Positions 33,832 through 64,000 are shown, counted from the first letter of the stretch. The stretch is DNA of 64,000 bases from Candidatus Omnitrophota bacterium (GCA_030681595.1 JAUXSB010000055.1:64364-128363); one strand, 5' to 3'. Numbers and translations are program-made. The notes: generated by a model not told the origin, from the sequence alone.

Positions 33832-34124
33832 ATTGGGAATTATGTTGTAACTTATTATAATGATTTAAGTTACGCAGAAACGACACGGTTTTTCTTGCAG
33901 AGATGGGAAAAGGTTGAGGCATTTAAACACCCCCGAGGTGGCCGCAGGTCTCCTCGGGGGTGGCGAAGCGCGGTTAAGTAGGGATTAGATACGTGCTCTC
34001 GGAATTATTTCTTGGCTAACTTCTAAAGTTGAGGTCTGACCCCGTTTGCATATGTCCCCCGATTTTCGTAGTTAAGCAGTTTGATGTGAGGTTTTTAGCC
34101 TTGAGAATCTAGGAGAATTTTTTT

Positions 34125-56222: not shown

Positions 56223-56318
56223 AAATAATTAACCGCTGCCAGCGAACCATTTGGTTTACGTAATTTACTTGACAAAATAATCCTTATGGTAATTTGTTAC
56301 CATAACTATGGTGAAAAG

Positions 56319-56864
56319 ATGATATCTTTACGTTCAAAAGTCACAATAAAATTATTGGATTATTATTTCCTTAATCCGGAAGCTCAAGTCTATATTAATG
56401 AGCTGGCAAGGATTCTAGAGCTTGATCCTAAAAATACGGAGACTAAGCTTAAGGAATTTGAAAAAGAAGGCCTTTTTAAAAGCGAATTCCGCGGGAAGCA
56501 AAGGTATTTTTATCTTGCAAAAGATAATCCAGTTTTGGAACATTACCGCCAGATTTTCCTAAAGACCCACGGTATAGAAAAAAGGCTCAAAGATATGATA
56601 GGTAATATTAAAGGGCTTAAGGAAGCTTATCTGTTCGGCTCATACGCAAGCAACAAAATGGATTCTTCAAGCGATATTGATCTTTTGGCCATAGGTACGC
56701 ACTCGGTTTTGGAATTACAGAGAGTTATTGCTAAATTGCAGAAAGATACAGGTAGAGAATTCAATGTAACTAATTTAAGCATGAATGAATTCGAGGTTAA
56801 AAAAAAGAACAAAGATCCATTTATAAACACTATCTTTAAAACTAAAATTATCAGGCTTATATGA
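56319..56864 (+). CDS. wHTH plus minimal nucleotidyltransferase (MNT/AbiEii-like)
   Basis: GS..S...DIDLLAIG is the pol-beta NTase motif. N-terminal winged-helix region. Confidence 0.6.
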   Translation: MISLRSKVTIKLLDYYFLNPEAQVYINELARILELDPKNTETKLKEFEKEGLFKSEFRGKQRYFYLAKDNPVLEHYRQIFLKTHGIEKRLKDMIGNIKGLKEAYLFGSYASNKMDSSSDIDLLAIGTHSVLELQRVIAKLQKDTGREFNVTNLSMNEFEVKKKNKDPFINTIFKTKIIRLI

Positions 56865-57256
56865 TCCATTTTGAGAGTCAACACTTTCAAAAACTGGTAT
56901 TTAAAGAAGAACAAATTGACCAATTCTTGAAATCTGCCTTACATGATCCGAAGATAGCTGAAGAATCAGATATTCCCGATGTTATTTTTAAGTTCAGTTA
57001 TGATGCTCTTATAAAATTAGGTATCGCGCTAATTGCCAAAAAAGGGCACAAAGTAAGAAGTACAGCCGGCCATCACGTTAAGATTTTAGAGAAACTGAGC
57101 CAGCTATTTAAAGATGAAGATATCCTTGTGCTTGGCAATAAAATGAGACAAGAGCGTAACGTCAATCTTTATGACGGCGGATTTTTTGTAGGAGAGAAGG
57201 ACAGCCTTGAATACCTCAAATTTGTCAAGAGCACCTTTAAAAAAGCGGGAATTTAA
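56861..57256 (+). CDS. Probable HEPN-domain partner of the upstream NTase
   Basis: ATGA overlap with the NTase. RSTAGH matches the Rx4-6H HEPN motif. Weak. Confidence 0.45.
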   Translation: MIHFESQHFQKLVFKEEQIDQFLKSALHDPKIAEESDIPDVIFKFSYDALIKLGIALIAKKGHKVRSTAGHHVKILEKLSQLFKDEDILVLGNKMRQERNVNLYDGGFFVGEKDSLEYLKFVKSTFKKAGI

Positions 57257-57731: not shown

Positions 57732-58358
57732 ATGTTGATCCCGGCCGGAAGAAAAAAGATGCTGGAAATATTCCTAAAAGACCCTTTTAAGGAAATCCAC
57801 TTACGAGAGATCGCCCGCCAATCAAAATCGTCACTTGCTAATGTGGACAATTCAATGCGGTTATTCGTGAAAAACGACATGTTTAAACGCAATGAAATGT
57901 CGCATTCCACGTTCTTTAAGCCCAACCTTGAAAATGATGAGACTATAAAGATATTCGAGCTTTTGGAGCTTGAGAGGCGCAAAGCATTTTATGCGAAGAA
58001 CAAGAATATAGCTCGCCTTATTAAGAAATACACAGATTCTATTATAGAGTTTTCAAACAAAAGGATCCAGCTTGTCATTCTTTTTGGTTCCGTAGCAAGG
58101 GGCGAATGGACAAAGGGTAGCGATATTGACATACTGGCGGTCGTTCCGGATAAAGAAAACGATATCATCGATATATTAAACAAGGCCAAGACAGATGTCA
58201 GTCCGCTTTTAGAAATAAGGCCGATAAGTACTACAACAAAAAAGTTTATCGATGGTTTTAAGGCCAAGACTGAATTTTACGATAATTTATGGAAGGATCG
58301 TATTGTGCTGTATAGCGAATTCTTATTTTGGCAACTTATAAGAGAGGGAGGCAAATGA
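57732..58358 (+). CDS. wHTH plus nucleotidyltransferase (second MNT-like)
   Basis: LFGSVARGEWTKGSDIDILAVV pol-beta NTase motif. Confidence 0.65.
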   Translation: MLIPAGRKKMLEIFLKDPFKEIHLREIARQSKSSLANVDNSMRLFVKNDMFKRNEMSHSTFFKPNLENDETIKIFELLELERRKAFYAKNKNIARLIKKYTDSIIEFSNKRIQLVILFGSVARGEWTKGSDIDILAVVPDKENDIIDILNKAKTDVSPLLEIRPISTTTKKFIDGFKAKTEFYDNLWKDRIVLYSEFLFWQLIREGGK

Positions 58359-58359
58359 T

Positions 58360-58857
58360 ATGCCCGAGAATTTAGAGCGGATTTTACAGGGTTGTTTTCA
58401 TCCAAAAGAAGGCAGGCCTAATCTACAAAAAGTGCCGGTTAGCTCAGAGCGCGCGCAACAACACATTGACAAAGCGCACAGTAACCTTCGAGCGATGAAG
58501 ATGATGTTTGACGGTGACTTGTTTGATTGGACGATTATTTGTGGATATTACGCGATGTATCATGCTGTTTTGGCGGCTCTTTATAAAATAGGCATCCGTG
58601 CGACAGCCCATTACTGCGCGCTTGCGGCGTTTAAGGAATTCTATGTCAAGCGAGGGAAAGTAAAACCGGAATTTGTAACATATATAAATCGCGCCAAACA
58701 GCTTGAGCATAAATATTCCGAGACGTTAGATAAGGCTCAAGAGAATAGAGTTGTGGAACAGTACGGCGTTGAAATTATCACCAATGACGATGCCGAATGG
58801 ATTATTGAAGATGCGAAAGACTTTGTACTTAAGATTGAAGAAGTGCTGGCATCATAA
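58360..58857 (+). CDS. HEPN-domain protein
   Basis: HEPN-like helical region and an R-x-x-x-H motif (RATAH). Start is 2 nt after the NTase stop. Confidence 0.65.
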   Translation: MPENLERILQGCFHPKEGRPNLQKVPVSSERAQQHIDKAHSNLRAMKMMFDGDLFDWTIICGYYAMYHAVLAALYKIGIRATAHYCALAAFKEFYVKRGKVKPEFVTYINRAKQLEHKYSETLDKAQENRVVEQYGVEIITNDDAEWIIEDAKDFVLKIEEVLAS

Positions 58858-58872
58858 AGGAAAGCATAAGCT

Positions 58873-59238
58873 ATGGGAACTACAACATTTTTTCTCAGAC
58901 ATAATGATTTGAGCAAGCCATTAAACAAAATGGGTAAGGAAGAATTAGAGAAACTCAATAATCTTTCGCCCTATGGCGAAACGCAACATCATGCCGGTTG
59001 GAGCGTGCCTTTCGAGCTTCATAATGGCAATACTTATGCTCTGGTGTTTTGGAAGGGCAGGCTAATGAAAATTGAGGACGCCCCCAAGGTCCTCAATAAA
59101 AAATATTACAGTAAATACCAAGGCAGGAAAGTTAATGAGTACGAATGGACAGTCTTGAAAAAATACCTCTTGGCAGAGGTGCAAAGGCTGGATAAAGAAT
59201 TTAAGAAATTTGTTAGGAAAAAGCCGAAGAATGATTAA
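58873..59238 (+). CDS. Hypothetical protein
   Basis: 121 aa. No motif recognised. Confidence 0.3.
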   Translation: MGTTTFFLRHNDLSKPLNKMGKEELEKLNNLSPYGETQHHAGWSVPFELHNGNTYALVFWKGRLMKIEDAPKVLNKKYYSKYQGRKVNEYEWTVLKKYLLAEVQRLDKEFKKFVRKKPKND

Positions 59239-59267: not shown

Positions 59268-59891
59268 GTGCGGATAGTCGCTATAGGAGATACTCATACC
59301 AAACACCGGAAACTTCAGGTTCCTGATGGCGATGTTTTGGTTTTTGCGGGCGATGGCGAATTTCGCTCAGCATTAGATTTAATCGACTTTAATAACTGGC
59401 TTTCAGGATTAGGGCACGATCTTGTTATTGTTATCGCAGGGAATCATGATTTTTTCTGCGAGCGGTTTCCGAATGAAGTCGGGAAGTATTTGACCAAAGC
59501 GATTTATTTAAGAGATGAACAGTATGCCTTACCGAATGGCATGGCGCTATGGGCATCTCCGATGACTCCGACATTTTTAAATTGGGCGTTCATGGAATCA
59601 GACGACAATTTGGATAGATATTATTGGAGCAAGATACCACAAAAGACCGATGTGCTTTTGACGCATGGGTCTGCTCATGGCTATTTGGATGTTTCTCAAC
59701 CTCAAGGCGATCATTTGGGCAGTAAAACCTTGGCCGACAGAATTGAGAAGCTAAAAATTCCATATGTCATCCATGGGCACATTCATGGCAGTTATGGCAT
59801 CAAAAAAACAAAGGAAACAACTTATATCAATTGCTCCGTATTGAACGAAGACTATGACTTGGTAAATCAGCCTATAGTGTTTGACGTATAA
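59268..59891 (+). CDS. Calcineurin-like metallophosphoesterase
   Basis: GDTH, AGDG, GNHD and GHIH motifs in canonical order. Confidence 0.7.
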   Translation: MRIVAIGDTHTKHRKLQVPDGDVLVFAGDGEFRSALDLIDFNNWLSGLGHDLVIVIAGNHDFFCERFPNEVGKYLTKAIYLRDEQYALPNGMALWASPMTPTFLNWAFMESDDNLDRYYWSKIPQKTDVLLTHGSAHGYLDVSQPQGDHLGSKTLADRIEKLKIPYVIHGHIHGSYGIKKTKETTYINCSVLNEDYDLVNQPIVFDV

Positions 59892-60193
59892 AGTGTAGGG
59901 AAGAACAGAGAAGAGAAGAATGGTGAAGGAAAGAAAAGCTACAGGCATAAAGACTTGGCCGGAGGATGATAGGCCGCGCGAGAAGTTGAAGAGATAACTT
60001 CTAATTTCGAGGCCTGACCCCTATGACCCCTAAGGTTGGCGGAGAGATATATAAAGCGTCTTGAGTATCTCAATTGAGATTATCATTTCACATTTCAATG
60101 GCTGATCCCATATGAGCTTCCGCTTGTGGGTAACAGGCTTGTTTCAACATTTAAGGCCTGACCCCAAAAGTCCCTGAAATTAGGAGAAAATCA

Positions 60194-60541
60194 ATGAGTG
60201 AGATAAAAGCAATTACTGAAAAGATTAAAAAATTCAGAGATGAGCGGGAATGGATGCAGTTTCATGATCCTAAAAATATGGCAGTTTCTATCATTCTGGA
60301 GGCATCGGAGCTTCTTGAGCATTTTCAATGGAAAACGCTTGAAGAGGTTGAAAAGTATGTTAAAGAAAATCACGGCGAGATTAAAGATGAAATCGCAGAT
60401 ATATCTTTATACTTGTTTGAGTTGGCAGATAATCTGGGCATTGATTTGATTGAAGCTATGGAACATAAGCTTAAAAAGAATGAAATGAAATACCCTGCTG
60501 AAAAGGCTCGTGGCAAACATACGAAATATAATAAATTGTAA
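60194..60541 (+). CDS. MazG-family (all-alpha NTP pyrophosphohydrolase) small protein
   Basis: KKFRDEREWMQFHDPKNMAVSIILEASELLEHFQWK with the EExxE-type metal motif of MazG/HisE-like NTP-PPases. Confidence 0.65.
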   Translation: MSEIKAITEKIKKFRDEREWMQFHDPKNMAVSIILEASELLEHFQWKTLEEVEKYVKENHGEIKDEIADISLYLFELADNLGIDLIEAMEHKLKKNEMKYPAEKARGKHTKYNKL

Positions 60542-60543
60542 AA

Positions 60544-62958
60544 ATGAGATTATATTCTGGTAGTTCTCAGCAATTCATTGACGACGCAATACAAAATCAG
60601 ATCGCAGAGAAGCTTCGGCTTGCCTTTTTCAATTATTATAGGTTTTATCCTTCCCCTTCAGAAATAAATTCTTGGCGAAATTCTCTAAGAGCAGTTTGTC
60701 AAATTTTTCAACATGCTAATCTTCTTGATCACGGCATTATTCTTGAATACCAATTGCCGTTGACTTCGAAAAGATTAGATTGTTTGATTTGTGGGCGCAA
60801 TAAAGATAAAAAGGATAATGCTGTTATCTTAGAGTTGAAGCAATGGGAAAAATGCGAAGAGGCTTATGGTGAAAATGAAGTTTTGACATGGGTTGGTGGT
60901 GGGAAAAGAGAGGTTTTGCATCCTTCTGTTCAAGTTGGGCAGTATCAGATGTATCTTGAAGATACCCATACCGCTTTTAATAACGAATCGAATCCAGTTG
61001 TTCTTGATGCCTGCACGTATTTACATAATTATAATTATTACTCCGAAGATGTAATCTTTTCAAAAAAATTCCAGACAATATTAGAAAAGTATCCTTTATT
61101 TACTGCTGATGATGTAGATAAGCTCAAATACTATTTATTGGATAAATTGGCGCTTGGGGGTGGGTTAGATGTTTTAAATCGAATTGAGGAGAGCAAATAT
61201 CGTCCTAGCAAAAAATTAATGGACCACGTTGGCAATATTATAAAAGGCAAAACAGAATATGTGTTACTTGATGAGCAACTAATCGTTTATGATTCTGTTT
61301 TTTCTTGTGCAAAGCAAGGTTTCCATGATAAGCAGAAATCAGTCATAATCGTTAAGGGAGGTCCAGGTACGGGCAAATCTGCTATTGCCATTAACCTTAT
61401 GGCTGATTTATTGTTGAAGGGATATAACGCTCACTATGCAACAGGGTCAAAGGCTTTCACAACCACTTTGCGAAAGATTATCGGAGTTAGGGGTTCGGCA
61501 CAGTTCAAATATTTTAGCAGTTATGCTGGCGCAGATCTGAACATTATAGATATTTTAATTGCAGATGAAGCACATAGAATTCGTATTACTAGTAATAATC
61601 GTTTTACAAAAAGGGCAAACAAATCTGATTTATTCCAAATTGAAGAACTTTTGAAAGCTTCGAAAGTTGCTGTATTTTTTATTGATGACAATCAGGTTGT
61701 GCGGCCCAATGAGATTGGTTCGGTTTCCTATATTAAAGAAGTTGCCTCTCAAAATAAATGTAAAGTTTTTGAGTATGAGTTAGAAGCTCAGTTTAGATGT
61801 AATGGTTCTGATGCTTTTGTTAATTGGATTAATAATACTTTGGGAATTAAAAAAACAGCAAATGTTATTTGGGATCAACATGAAGAATTTGATCTTAAGA
61901 TTTTTTCTAACCCATTCGAATTAGAAAATGTTATAAAACAGAAAGTTAAAGAAGGTTCTACGGGTCGTGTAACTGCTGGATTTTGTTGGGATTGGTCTAT
62001 GCCAAATGATGATGGAACCTTAAAGGATGACGTTGTTATTGGAGATTACAAGAGGCCATGGGATGCTAAGGAAGAAGCTAGAATATTGGCACCTGGCATC
62101 CCAAGGGCTTCGCTTTGGGCATATGACCCAAACGGTATTAATCAGGTAGGCTGTATATATACGGCCCAGGGTTTTGAGTTTGATTATATTGGAGTAATTT
62201 TTGGTGAAGATTTAGTTTATGATTTTGATAAACAAGAGTGGCAAGGCAATCTACAAAAATCTGCTGATAGTGTTGTAAAGAGATCTGGAGATAAATTCGT
62301 CGAATTAGTAAAAAATACATATCGTGTTTTACTCAGCAGAGGAATGAAGGGGTGTTATGTTTATTTTATGAATAAAGATACGGAAAGATTTTTTAGGTCT
62401 AGGATAGAAGGGTTAGTTGATTATAAGGCTCAAGATTTATCTCTGTCTGAGTCTTTTGCGCAAGATTCGGATTTTGTCGATGATATTTTAAAAGAAATTG
62501 AAGAAGAGCAAAAATTTACAGAATATTTGCCTATTTATTCTTTAGCAGCCGCTTGTGGAAAGTTTGGTGAAGGCGTTGATGTGCAAATAGACAGTTGGTT
62601 TAAAGTGGCCAAGGAGGTAGTGCCTTATCGTAATATGTTTGTTTCTAAAGTTCATGGGCATTCTATGGAGCCACTTGTTCCTGACGGTAGTTATTGTTTA
62701 TTCCGAAGCGGTATTGTGGGCAGTCGCCAGAATAAGATTGTGTTAGTTCAATATAATGGGCCAGCTGATGTTGAGACTGGCGGTCGTTATACCGTAAAAA
62801 AATATACTAGCAAAAAGAAAACGAAAAAAGATGGATCGTGGGAACACGAGGACATTATACTATTGCCTTTGAATAAAGCTTATGATTCTATTGTCATTCC
62901 GAATTCAGAAGAGAGCGAGTTTAGGATTATTGCAGAATTTTTGCAAGTTTTGAAATAA
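60544..62958 (+). CDS. Three-module protein: N-terminal PD-(D/E)xK nuclease-like domain, DUF2075/SF1-like P-loop ATPase, C-terminal S24 (LexA/UmuD-like) self-cleaving peptidase
   Basis: LDCLI...VILELK is the D...ExK motif. Walker A GGPGTGKS and Walker B ILIADEAHR. C-terminus has a cleavage-site-like AAACG, then HGHSME (Ser nucleophile) and YTVKKY (Lys base). Confidence 0.65.
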   Translation: MRLYSGSSQQFIDDAIQNQIAEKLRLAFFNYYRFYPSPSEINSWRNSLRAVCQIFQHANLLDHGIILEYQLPLTSKRLDCLICGRNKDKKDNAVILELKQWEKCEEAYGENEVLTWVGGGKREVLHPSVQVGQYQMYLEDTHTAFNNESNPVVLDACTYLHNYNYYSEDVIFSKKFQTILEKYPLFTADDVDKLKYYLLDKLALGGGLDVLNRIEESKYRPSKKLMDHVGNIIKGKTEYVLLDEQLIVYDSVFSCAKQGFHDKQKSVIIVKGGPGTGKSAIAINLMADLLLKGYNAHYATGSKAFTTTLRKIIGVRGSAQFKYFSSYAGADLNIIDILIADEAHRIRITSNNRFTKRANKSDLFQIEELLKASKVAVFFIDDNQVVRPNEIGSVSYIKEVASQNKCKVFEYELEAQFRCNGSDAFVNWINNTLGIKKTANVIWDQHEEFDLKIFSNPFELENVIKQKVKEGSTGRVTAGFCWDWSMPNDDGTLKDDVVIGDYKRPWDAKEEARILAPGIPRASLWAYDPNGINQVGCIYTAQGFEFDYIGVIFGEDLVYDFDKQEWQGNLQKSADSVVKRSGDKFVELVKNTYRVLLSRGMKGCYVYFMNKDTERFFRSRIEGLVDYKAQDLSLSESFAQDSDFVDDILKEIEEEQKFTEYLPIYSLAAACGKFGEGVDVQIDSWFKVAKEVVPYRNMFVSKVHGHSMEPLVPDGSYCLFRSGIVGSRQNKIVLVQYNGPADVETGGRYTVKKYTSKKKTKKDGSWEHEDIILLPLNKAYDSIVIPNSEESEFRIIAEFLQVLK

Positions 62959-62991
62959 CTAAATAGGATTGCTTTTTAAAAATTATAATTT

Positions 62992-64000
62992 ATGAAACGA
63001 GCATATTATTCTGATTCAATTAGTAATTTTTGTAAGTCTAGCCCAGAGGAGATAGTTGGTAAGCTTGCAATAAATAATGATTTTTCCTTGGAACAAACAC
63101 AGCGTGATGCATGGTTAGAAGAAATCAATATATTACATAGAACTATTTCGTCTTTTCAGGGATCAATTTACTTTGAATATTCTATTCCGCGAATGGGACA
63201 ACGAATTGACGTGGTGCTTCTAATTGGTCCCGTGATTTTTGTTCTTGAATTTAAAATTGGTGAAGATGAATTCGCATCATATGCCATTGATCAGGTTTGG
63301 GATTATGCTTTGGATTTAAAAAACTTTCATGAATCGAGCCACGATCAGTACATTGCTCCACTTCTGATTGCTACAAAAGCTGAAAATGCCTATTCAGTTA
63401 TTTCTATAACACCACAAAATGACAAACTTCTGTTTCCTGTTAAATGTAATATAGAGATGCTCGAAAAAGTGATTAAAGATGTTTTACACTTTGTTGAAGG
63501 TGATAATATTGACCGAATACAGTGGGAAAGCGGTCGATATTGTCCAACTCCAAACATTATAGAAGCAGCTATGGCGTTATACAACGGTCACTCGGTTAGC
63601 GAAATTTCTCGCAGTGACGCAAGTGCGATTAATTTAAGCCAAACGTCAGATGCGATTTCGGCCGTTATACGTCTTTCAAAAGAAAAGTTTCAAAAATCCA
63701 TTTGTTTTGTTACGGGTGTTCCAGGCTCTGGTAAAACGCTGGTTGGGCTGAATATCGCAACTACGCATATTGATGCTTCGAATGACCTTTATAGTGTTTA
63801 TCTTTCTGGTAATGGGCCGCTTGTTGAGATTCTTCGAGAGGCATTGGCACGTGATAAAGTTCGGCTGACACAGGAGCGTGGGAATAGAATTAAAAAAGGC
63901 GAGGCTATGAGTGAAGTTAAGGCATTTATCCAAAATGTGCATCATTTTCGTGATGATTGTCTTGTCGATGTAAAATCGCCACCCATTGAGCACGTTGCAT
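62992..64000 (+). CDS. Paralogous PD-(D/E)xK nuclease plus DUF2075 ATPase protein, 3'-truncated at the window end
   Basis: RIDVVLL...FVLEFK is the D...ExK motif. Walker [10 protein letters not shown]. The frame is open to position 64000. The minus-strand track ORF 63676..63993 is spurious. Confidence 0.65.

Follow-up and report, generated by a model that had tools for sequence, protein, structure and literature searches.

A MazG-like gene paired with a nuclease-helicase gene in a Candidatus Omnitrophota genome: a candidate defence module with a predicted LexA/UmuD-type tail

Gene content of the locus

The end of a 64,000 nt stretch of a Candidatus Omnitrophota genome (GCA_030681595.1, JAUXSB010000055.1:64364-128363; the whole stretch is referred to as the window) carries three closely spaced genes on one strand. 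The first two, g1 and g2, encode a predicted MazG-type pyrophosphohydrolase and a nuclease-helicase with a LexA/UmuD-like tail, and form the candidate defence pair that is the subject of this study. The third, g3, seems to be a separate neighbour. The gaps of 2 nt (g1-g2) and 33 nt (g2-g3) given in a preliminary description of this DNA are borne out by the list of open reading frames (ORFs), and g2 is 100% identical to an NCBI entry from a metagenome-assembled genome, 'DUF2075 domain-containing protein' of Candidatus Omnitrophota bacterium. The features of the locus are as follows.

60194..60541, plus strand: g1, 115 aa, predicted MazG-like / DCTPP1-like all-alpha deoxynucleoside triphosphate (dNTP) pyrophosphohydrolase
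60544..62958, plus strand: g2, 804 aa, predicted PD-(D/E)xK nuclease with DUF2075 (SF1 / Schlafen group-3) helicase and S24 tail
60544..61248, plus strand: g2 residues 1-235, restriction-endonuclease-like (PD-(D/E)xK) domain with E68, D79 and E97-x-K99
61336..62367, plus strand: g2 residues 265-608, DUF2075 / SLFN-g3 helicase ATPase core, Walker A GGPGTGKS at 272-279, Walker B D341-E342
62416..62955, plus strand: g2 residues 625-804, acidic linker and LexA/UmuD-type S24 module
62554-62559, plus strand: predicted scissile C671-G672 of g2
62662-62664, plus strand: Ser707 of g2
62797-62799, plus strand: Lys752 of g2
62992..64000, plus strand: g3, PDC-S41-type nuclease-like/DUF2075 protein, 336 aa inside the window, the end of which cuts the gene

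Conservation of the g1-g2 pair

Relatives of g2 were fetched in 80 genome loci, 68 from many bacterial phyla and 12 from archaea, and these were searched by tblastn. A g1 homologue adjoins the g2 homologue in 52 of the 80, in bacteria as well as archaea, nearly always immediately 5' of it (immediately 3' in some Actinomycetota). Upstream copies are tightly spaced, 27 of 35 ending between -4 and +6 nt from the g2 start, with an ATGA overlap in 11 of these. The MazG gene is thus a dedicated neighbour, as had been suspected, and not a housekeeping gene lying there by chance. Clustering of all flanking ORFs in the 80 loci gave no further conserved partner. The same association was recovered from the other side, a MazG profile being used to fetch 80 metagenome loci: the commonest neighbour was a DUF2075 gene (26 loci, in 24 of them directly downstream on the same strand), the others being rsmH (5), an HNH gene (4), rlmJ (2) and unknown genes. 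The g1 and g2 genes form a translationally coupled two-gene module, and the pairing holds across many phyla of bacteria and archaea.

This module moves horizontally. The g2 family is very widespread, with a patchy distribution and proteins that are 60-78% identical across phyla (Omnitrophota, Betaproteobacteria and Candidatus Oleimmundimicrobium sp.), which together indicate horizontal transfer. Homologues of g2 occur in 105 plasmid records and in only four phage records, and tblastn of the S24 tail against plasmids found a single record; given the one plasmid record with a tail and the few phage records, the module appears to be mainly chromosomal. The mobilizable Hymenobacter canadensis plasmid NZ_CP114769.1 (locus L082, 3904-7890) carries two tandem DUF2075 genes beside a DNA methyltransferase gene and a DUF4747 gene, with no MazG among the annotations.

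Some loci depart from the common layout. A 711-aa GIY-YIG-DUF2075-S24 protein is encoded 5 nt 3' of a MazG gene (L093, 677-2809, plus strand), with a different nuclease domain and with the MazG partner and S24 tail retained. In six loci (L003, 2164-3030; L026; L030; L039; L041; L043), five of them without MazG, the upstream gene belongs to one family, the L003 copy (288 aa) having an HExxH-like motif and the L041 copy (573 aa) tetratricopeptide (TPR) repeats; three of the six g2 homologues behind these genes bear an S24 tail.

The nuclease-helicase core of g2

The central part of g2 matches PF09848 (SLFN-g3_helicase/DUF2075) over practically the whole profile (residues 265-608, E 6.5e-84, profile positions 1-352 of 354), and the Walker A sequence GGPGTGKS, the DE of Walker B and the helicase motifs are invariant in the homologue alignment, as befits the DUF2075/SF1 ATPase that it had been taken for. 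The proposal that the N-terminus is restriction-endonuclease-like fares equally well: E68, D79 and E97-L-K99 (RLDCLI...ELKQW) are invariant in 20 homologues and fall on predicted strands (64-69, 78-85 and 91-99), giving a PD-(D/E)xK motif in a predicted alpha/beta fold of the restriction-endonuclease type. Searches of the PDB with the g2 sequence and with a profile of its N-terminus yielded nothing useful.

The defence proteins Nhi (10.1101/776245) and Nhi-like are likewise built from an N-terminal PD-(D/E)xK nuclease and a DUF2075 helicase, and for this reason g2 is described here as Nhi-like in architecture. The Nhi protein of S. epidermidis (SERP2475), Nhi-like (Millman et al. 2022) and AbiO each combine both domains in one protein and, like g2, are located in defence islands. 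Unlike g2, Nhi has neither a MazG partner nor an S24 tail, and the g2 subfamily is distinct and much larger. The PADLOC matches of g2 are weak and partial: Nhi (E 2.3e-13) is limited to residues 237-471 of g2 (profile positions 179-377 of 470), AbiO has E 6e-13, and PDC-S41 (E 3e-15) covers only a 70-residue stretch near the C-terminal end of the profile (positions 554-623), so that g2 is not a full-length member of the latter. A more distant parallel is human SLFN11 (Schlafen group 3), which carries the homologous PF09848 helicase domain in a nuclease plus helicase protein and responds to single-stranded DNA (ssDNA) and replication stress (PMC13056530); its nuclease, however, is a Schlafen/AlbA_2 tRNase and not of the PD-(D/E)xK type, and it lacks both the S24 tail and the MazG partner.

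The S24 tail of g2

The C-terminus of g2 matches PF00717 (Peptidase_S24) at residues 663-798 with 38.2 bits, above the gathering cut-off of 23.3. Residues 625-804 were aligned profile to profile with hhalign against LexA and UmuD, with probabilities of 91.5% for UmuD (E 9e-7) and 78% for LexA (E 2e-5). In these alignments Ser707 falls on LexA S119 and UmuD S60, Lys752 on LexA K156 and UmuD K97, and Cys671-Gly672 exactly on UmuD Cys24-Gly25, with 35 residues between the scissile Gly and the Ser in g2, 35 in UmuD and 34 in LexA. The motifs G-H-S707-M-E, Y-T-V-K752 and A-A-C671-G672 are conserved in homologues, and a profile search of the PDB with the tail gave a weak match in which GxSM is aligned on the nucleophile of M. 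tuberculosis LexA. Both the intact-looking LexA/UmuD-type module and the likeness of AAACG to the UmuD cleavage site, put forward in the preliminary description, are supported by these alignments.

As in LexA, UmuD and lambda CI, the tail would thus comprise a Ser-Lys dyad, an Ala/Cys-Gly bond about 35 residues before the Ser and a beta-rich catalytic core, and the spacing of LP-x-[YF]-S-L...A-A-[A/C]-G is identical to that of UmuD. It differs from these proteins in having no DNA-binding helix-turn-helix (HTH), in an extra insertion after the Lys (KK-x-DGSWEHE), and in riding on large nucleases, helicases and restriction enzymes where the known modules belong to a repressor or a polymerase subunit. 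Of 107 close homologues, about 89% have the motif P-x-Y-S-L-x-A-A-[A/C]-G-x-F.

Not every member of the g2 family has the S24 tail: it is an accessory that occurs in 12 of the 80 g2-homologue loci. Tail-less forms of 622-627 aa, which share 80-83% core identity with tailed forms and are interleaved with them, stop about 45 residues before the scissile bond. The tail might be expected to be confined to bacteria, since these have RecA. All 12 tails are in the 68 bacterial loci and none in the 12 archaeal ones, but the difference is not significant (hypergeometric P ~0.12) and is given no weight here. One homologue (P0116, 705 aa, 78% core identity to g2) has an XRE-type HTH (PF01381) where the S24 tail would be, so the C-terminal accessory slot seems to be variable.

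The same tail on other immune enzymes

The tail profile was searched against 1.84 billion representative proteins, and matched 2,470 clusters at E <= 1e-3, of which 561 reach E <= 1e-30. In 140 of the best 150 matches (E 1e-48 to 1e-77, protein lengths 160-1,969 aa) the module forms the very C-terminus; 148 of the 150 have GxSM, 149 the Lys motif and 134 A-[A/C/S]-G-x-[F/L].

The 88 tail-bearing proteins of at least 280 aa were scanned with Pfam and PADLOC. None of the 88 deviates at the Ser or the Lys, an invariance that speaks for genuine catalysis. Besides Peptidase_S24 itself (82 proteins), the Pfam domains found are DUF2075 (18), ResIII (13), Type_ISP_C (11), Eco57I (5), the MrfA Zn-binding domain MZB (5), DEAD (4), N6_Mtase (4), the HsdR C-terminal domain T1RH-like_C (2), AlwI (2), the HsdS domain Methylase_S (2) and, once each, Mrr, LlaJI, MmeI, DUF3427, Schlafen AlbA_2, PLD and HNH. 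PADLOC assigned 11 proteins to REase_MTase_IIG, 7 to REase_MTase_I, 6 to DruE, 5 to REase_III and 2 to DrmMI. Architectures include DEAD-Helicase_C-MZB-S24 in DruE/YprA-like proteins of 1,878 and 1,969 aa, an MmeI-like Type IIG enzyme with S24, ResIII/SNF2 with S24, and N6_Mtase-Eco57I-Type_ISP_C-S24.

As the same subfamily ends so many restriction enzymes and helicases, we read the tail of g2 as one of a shared family of predicted regulatory modules on DNA-targeting immune enzymes, namely Type I, IIG, ISP and III restriction enzymes, DruE/YprA-like helicases and other DUF2075 proteins. Searches of the literature on DUF2075 with S24 or MazG, and on S24 together with defence, with Druantia or with restriction alleviation found no account of the g1-g2 pair or of S24-tailed defence enzymes, such absence being no proof of novelty, and a recent survey of YprA/DruE mentions neither S24 nor LexA. 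The preliminary description had not recognised the architecture of this locus as a described system. That view does not hold for the combination of nuclease and DUF2075, which already occurs in Nhi, Nhi-like, AbiO and PDC-S41, but it seems to stand for the MazG pairing and the S24 tail. What appears to be new is the conserved partnership of MazG with a Nhi-like nuclease-helicase and, above all, the portability of the LexA-type tail, which recurs as one module on many immune enzymes that target DNA. The latter suggests that immune nucleases are tied to the DNA-damage signal in a way not described so far.

The MazG-like enzyme

The description of g1 as a MazG-type NTP pyrophosphohydrolase agrees with its match to PF12643 (MazG-like, E 5e-20), and its nearest relatives of solved structure are 4qgp, a pyrophosphatase from an archaeon (E 4e-24), and DCTPP1/RS21-C6 (E 5e-17). 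These align with g1 over its full length and share its EXXE...EXXD metal site, whose residues E36, E39, E66 and D69 are kept by all of 44 g2-linked homologues (100%); on account of this conservation, g1 is expected to be an active dNTP pyrophosphohydrolase. It differs from both in being a minimal 115-aa form that is genetically coupled to a nuclease-helicase. The preferred substrates of DCTPP1 are 5-modified dCTPs. KomB of the Kongming system, a HAM1-like protein related to pyrophosphatases, is no longer catalytic and serves as a dITP sensor (PMC13434031), whereas g1 retains its catalytic residues.

Members of the same MazG subfamily, 45-55% identical to g1, also lie directly 5' of rsmH/mraW or rlmJ (L086, 2148-3224; L137, 4336-5412; L130, 2073-2990). 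As these are rRNA methyltransferase genes, part of the family is probably housekeeping.

The third gene

The complete g3, known from the same contig in another source (L081), is 658 aa long and a full-length member of the PADLOC family PDC-S41 (E 3.3e-288, profile positions 1-652 of 657). The 336 aa inside the window match PDC-S41 as well (E 6.6e-127), and match PF09848 at the start of the DUF2075 domain. PDC-S41 resembles g2 in combining a nuclease-like N-terminus with DUF2075. It differs in being a single-gene candidate whose role in defence is predicted only, and g2 is not a full-length match to its profile; no paper on PDC-S41 was found.

The preliminary description made g3 a paralogue of g2 with the same nuclease-ATPase architecture, and the third member of an operon. 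The shared domain plan is real, but the relation is a distant one: BLASTP gives only patchy identity of 22-25% (E 4e-5), and a close paralogue can be rejected. The conserved three-gene system must be abandoned too, since g3 stands beside a g2 homologue in just one of the 80 other loci, that of another Omnitrophota genome with the same trio. Being a PDC-S41 member, distant from g2 and rarely located with it, g3 is most simply regarded, on its sequence and distribution, as a separate, neighbouring candidate defence gene, and the conserved unit as the g1-g2 pair.

In the one other trio (L045, 920-5930), identity to the window copies is 74% for g1, 77% for g3, 56% for the S24 tail of g2 and 45% for the best segment of g2. 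The middle gene either diverged faster or was exchanged. The second DUF2075 gene on the Hymenobacter plasmid was considered as a close relative of g3 and PDC-S41 and rejected, at 23% identity over partial length.

Genomic context

The pair lies in a segment of low GC content (0.36-0.37, where most of the rest of the window has 0.40-0.46). PADLOC places PDC-M05 (twice), PDC-S10 and PDC-S41 in this segment, in keeping with the defence island with NTase-HEPN pairs that had been proposed. Two nucleotidyltransferase/HEPN pairs that resemble MNT-HEPN toxin-antitoxin systems (56286-57256 and 57732-58857, plus strand) match PDC-M05A/B and PDC-S09, and a 207-aa calcineurin-like metallophosphoesterase with a strong PDC-S10 match (E 2.5e-68) is encoded directly 5' of the pair (59268-59891, plus strand). 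A 121-aa ORF before the latter gene (58873-59238) matched no family. Downstream of g3, in the other source of the contig, come a small ORF and a Y1 (IS200/RAYT-type) transposase gene (L081, 7728-8183).

A scan for promoters and terminators between 58.8 and 64 kb found sites no more numerous than in shuffled sequence. A perfect 14-nt palindrome, ATCTCAATTGAGAT, at window positions 60067-60080, about 115 nt 5' of the g1 start, may be an operator. The 300-nt spacer 5' of g1 also holds two copies of the 12-mer AGGCCTGACCCC (60010-60021 and 60154-60165, plus strand), of which a third copy with one mismatch lies at 34032-34043, three matches in all against 0.04 expected. Given the Y1 transposase just 3' of g3, these could be elements of the repetitive extragenic palindromic (REP) kind.

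Beyond this genome, g1-g2 usually lies among restriction and other defence genes. The 140 nearest neighbours in the 80 g2-homologue loci include 10-11 HNH_2 proteins, Type IV methyl-directed restriction endonucleases, PbeA, components of Type I, II and III restriction-modification (R-M) systems, DpdF, BrxP and PDC-S05. The HNH domain of the HNH_2 neighbours matches PDB 6yex, which we take to be the modification-dependent EVE-HNH enzyme VcaM4I. An HNH_2 protein of about 310 aa occurs in 13 of the 80 loci, often in an HNH-MazG-g2 operon (L038, 991-4158; L042, 120-3380; L075, 6697-9873) or overlapping the end of g2; L010 (8001-11389) is a further locus with this protein. Giant HIT-PLD-ResIII-DUF3427 proteins recur in four to five of the 80. 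An earlier survey already placed DUF2075 NTPases beside modification-dependent endonucleases (PMC6765204).

Proposed function and alternatives

On balance it seems probable, if only just, that g1-g2 is a Nhi-like defence pair in which the tail of g2 acts as a self-cleaving, damage-responsive switch. Like Nhi, the nuclease-helicase would degrade the DNA of phages or replication intermediates that contain ssDNA. Its tail would cleave itself at C671|G672, most probably on docking with RecA-ssDNA filaments in the manner of LexA, UmuD and lambda CI, and self-cleavage would couple the level or activity of a DNA motor-nuclease that is dangerous to its own cell to the DNA-damage state of the host. Meanwhile g1 would most likely act on base-modified dNTPs. 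By hydrolysing such non-canonical nucleotides it could starve phages with modified DNA, or alternatively keep salvaged modified nucleotides out of the host DNA, which would else be cut by the neighbouring modification-dependent nucleases; it may further be a nucleotide sensor.

As to the direction of the switch, our first choice, which may still prove wrong slightly sooner than right, is a safety off-switch triggered by damage, in effect a built-in restriction alleviation. Cleavage would shorten the enzyme to 671 residues, with ...SLAAAC-COOH as its end (most homologues would have ...AAA-COOH), and we liken the exposed AAC or AAA end to a ClpXP degron, through which the enzyme would be cleared for as long as the host has unmodified or ssDNA intermediates of its own under repair. 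Cleavage of LexA likewise exposes a ClpXP degron, VAA-COOH, which Neher and colleagues reportedly described in 2003, and restriction alleviation is said to be RecA-dependent and LexA-independent, a result ascribed to Thoms and Wackernagel in 1984. We favour the off-switch because the tail decorates classical R-M enzymes, which must act constitutively and are known to need an alleviation of restriction after DNA damage (PMC4231737), and because the predicted cleaved end resembles the LexA degron; no end of this type would be present on the natural tail-less forms, which stop about 45 residues before it. The alleviation of Type I restriction through ClpXP-dependent proteolysis of HsdR is established (PMC4231737). 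As in our proposal for g2, proteolysis there removes a DNA-translocating motor (EcoKI) when host DNA is unmodified or under repair (PMC4231737), but it acts in trans, no degron having been identified and no S24 domain being present, and the tie to the tail is one that we infer.

Several points weigh against this interpretation. Self-cleavage, its dependence on activated RecA and its direction are all predictions, and some LexA-like proteins, such as IrvR, are processed independently of RecA (PMC7101444). The degron is a matter of likeness, and S24 catalysis in itself calls for small residues ahead of the scissile Gly. In ~10% of tails Thr or Ser replaces the P1' Gly, and these are perhaps not cleaved. 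The hhalign probabilities of the tail (78% and 91.5%) are moderate, and the AlphaFold2 model of the tail, built from a shallow alignment of 15 sequences, is poor (predicted local distance difference test, pLDDT, of 57), for which reason the S24 assignment leans on profile evidence. With this low-confidence model Foldseek returned LexA as all of the top 12 PDB matches, but weakly (best E 7e-3, template modelling (TM) score ~0.35). The assignment of g2 to the Nhi family draws on architecture and on weak, partial hidden Markov model (HMM) matches, the MazG subfamily is not exclusive to DUF2075 partners, and the enrichment of the pair in defence islands is qualitative, as the neighbours were scanned without a background rate.

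The main alternative concerns direction: removal of the tail, as an inhibitory part, could activate the enzyme, a possibility that we find doubtful. An earlier and fuller model of this kind, in which the S24 tail is an inhibitory lock, cleavage with activated RecA switches the nuclease-helicase on for an abortive-infection-like response or for direct attack, MazG alters nucleotide pools and g1, g2 and g3 act jointly, is unlikely. It accords with the intact S24 module, with the existence of tail-less orthologues of 80-83% core identity that are presumably active, with the ssDNA that phage replication yields for RecA loading, and with the finding that Nhi in vitro shows hardly any nuclease activity at full length, whereas a shortened form made up of its N-terminal part is active (10.1101/776245). 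It accords less well with the position of g3 outside the conserved unit and with the occurrence of the tail on Type I, IIG, ISP and III enzymes, whose immediate cutting such a lock would delay; and the natural tail-less forms, ending well before the scissile bond, are unlike the product of cleavage.

It is a good deal less probable that the tail serves without regulated self-cleavage, as a dimerisation domain or as a handle for docking on RecA filaments that recruits the enzyme to ssDNA gaps or recombination intermediates. According to PMC9926225, the S24 domains of LexA, UmuD and CI form dimers and fit into the groove of the RecA filament, Nhi is a dimer at work (10.1101/776245), and the tails without a P1' Gly would also be accounted for. 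The invariance of the dyad in all 88 proteins scanned, its presence in 148-149 of the best 150 matches and the A-[A/C]-G motif kept in ~89% of homologues nevertheless argue for selection on catalysis and not on binding alone.

That g1-g2 has no part in immunity, being an SOS-linked module for DNA repair and nucleotide sanitation (a fork-processing helicase-nuclease with a house-cleaning dNTPase) that lies near defence genes by chance, is very improbable: DCTPP1-type enzymes are indeed house-cleaning, the MazG subfamily also neighbours rsmH and rlmJ, S24 modules are part of the SOS network and the g2 family is very widespread, but its distribution is patchy with horizontal transfer across phyla, it occurs on plasmids, its neighbours are mostly restriction and defence genes, the segment is of low GC with a Y1 transposase downstream, and the closest characterised proteins of the same architecture (Nhi, Nhi-like and AbiO) act in defence.

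If the damage-responsive switch on g2 is extended to the other tailed enzymes, the tail may be a general, cis-encoded sensor of RecA filaments that was repeatedly acquired by DNA-targeting immune enzymes and wires their activity or stability to the SOS signal, with MazG adding a layer at the level of nucleotides against base-modified phage DNA. We offer this only tentatively.

Significance

The pairing of a DCTPP1-like dNTPase with a Nhi-like nuclease-helicase makes g1-g2 an uncharacterised two-gene candidate defence system that is widespread in bacteria and archaea, and its frequent position beside modification-dependent nucleases suggests that it is directed at phages whose bases are modified. 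Only for a few Type I enzymes, through ClpXP-dependent alleviation, is it understood how immune enzymes that cut DNA are kept from destroying the chromosome of their own cell while it is repaired and recombined. If the proposed role of the LexA-type self-cleaving tail is true, it would be a simple and portable answer to this problem of self-protection for many unrelated restriction and defence motors. It would join the SOS response to immunity at the protein level, by a self-proteolytic switch of a kind undescribed for any defence system, and phages that manipulate RecA or the SOS response would thereby change the activity of the tailed enzymes.

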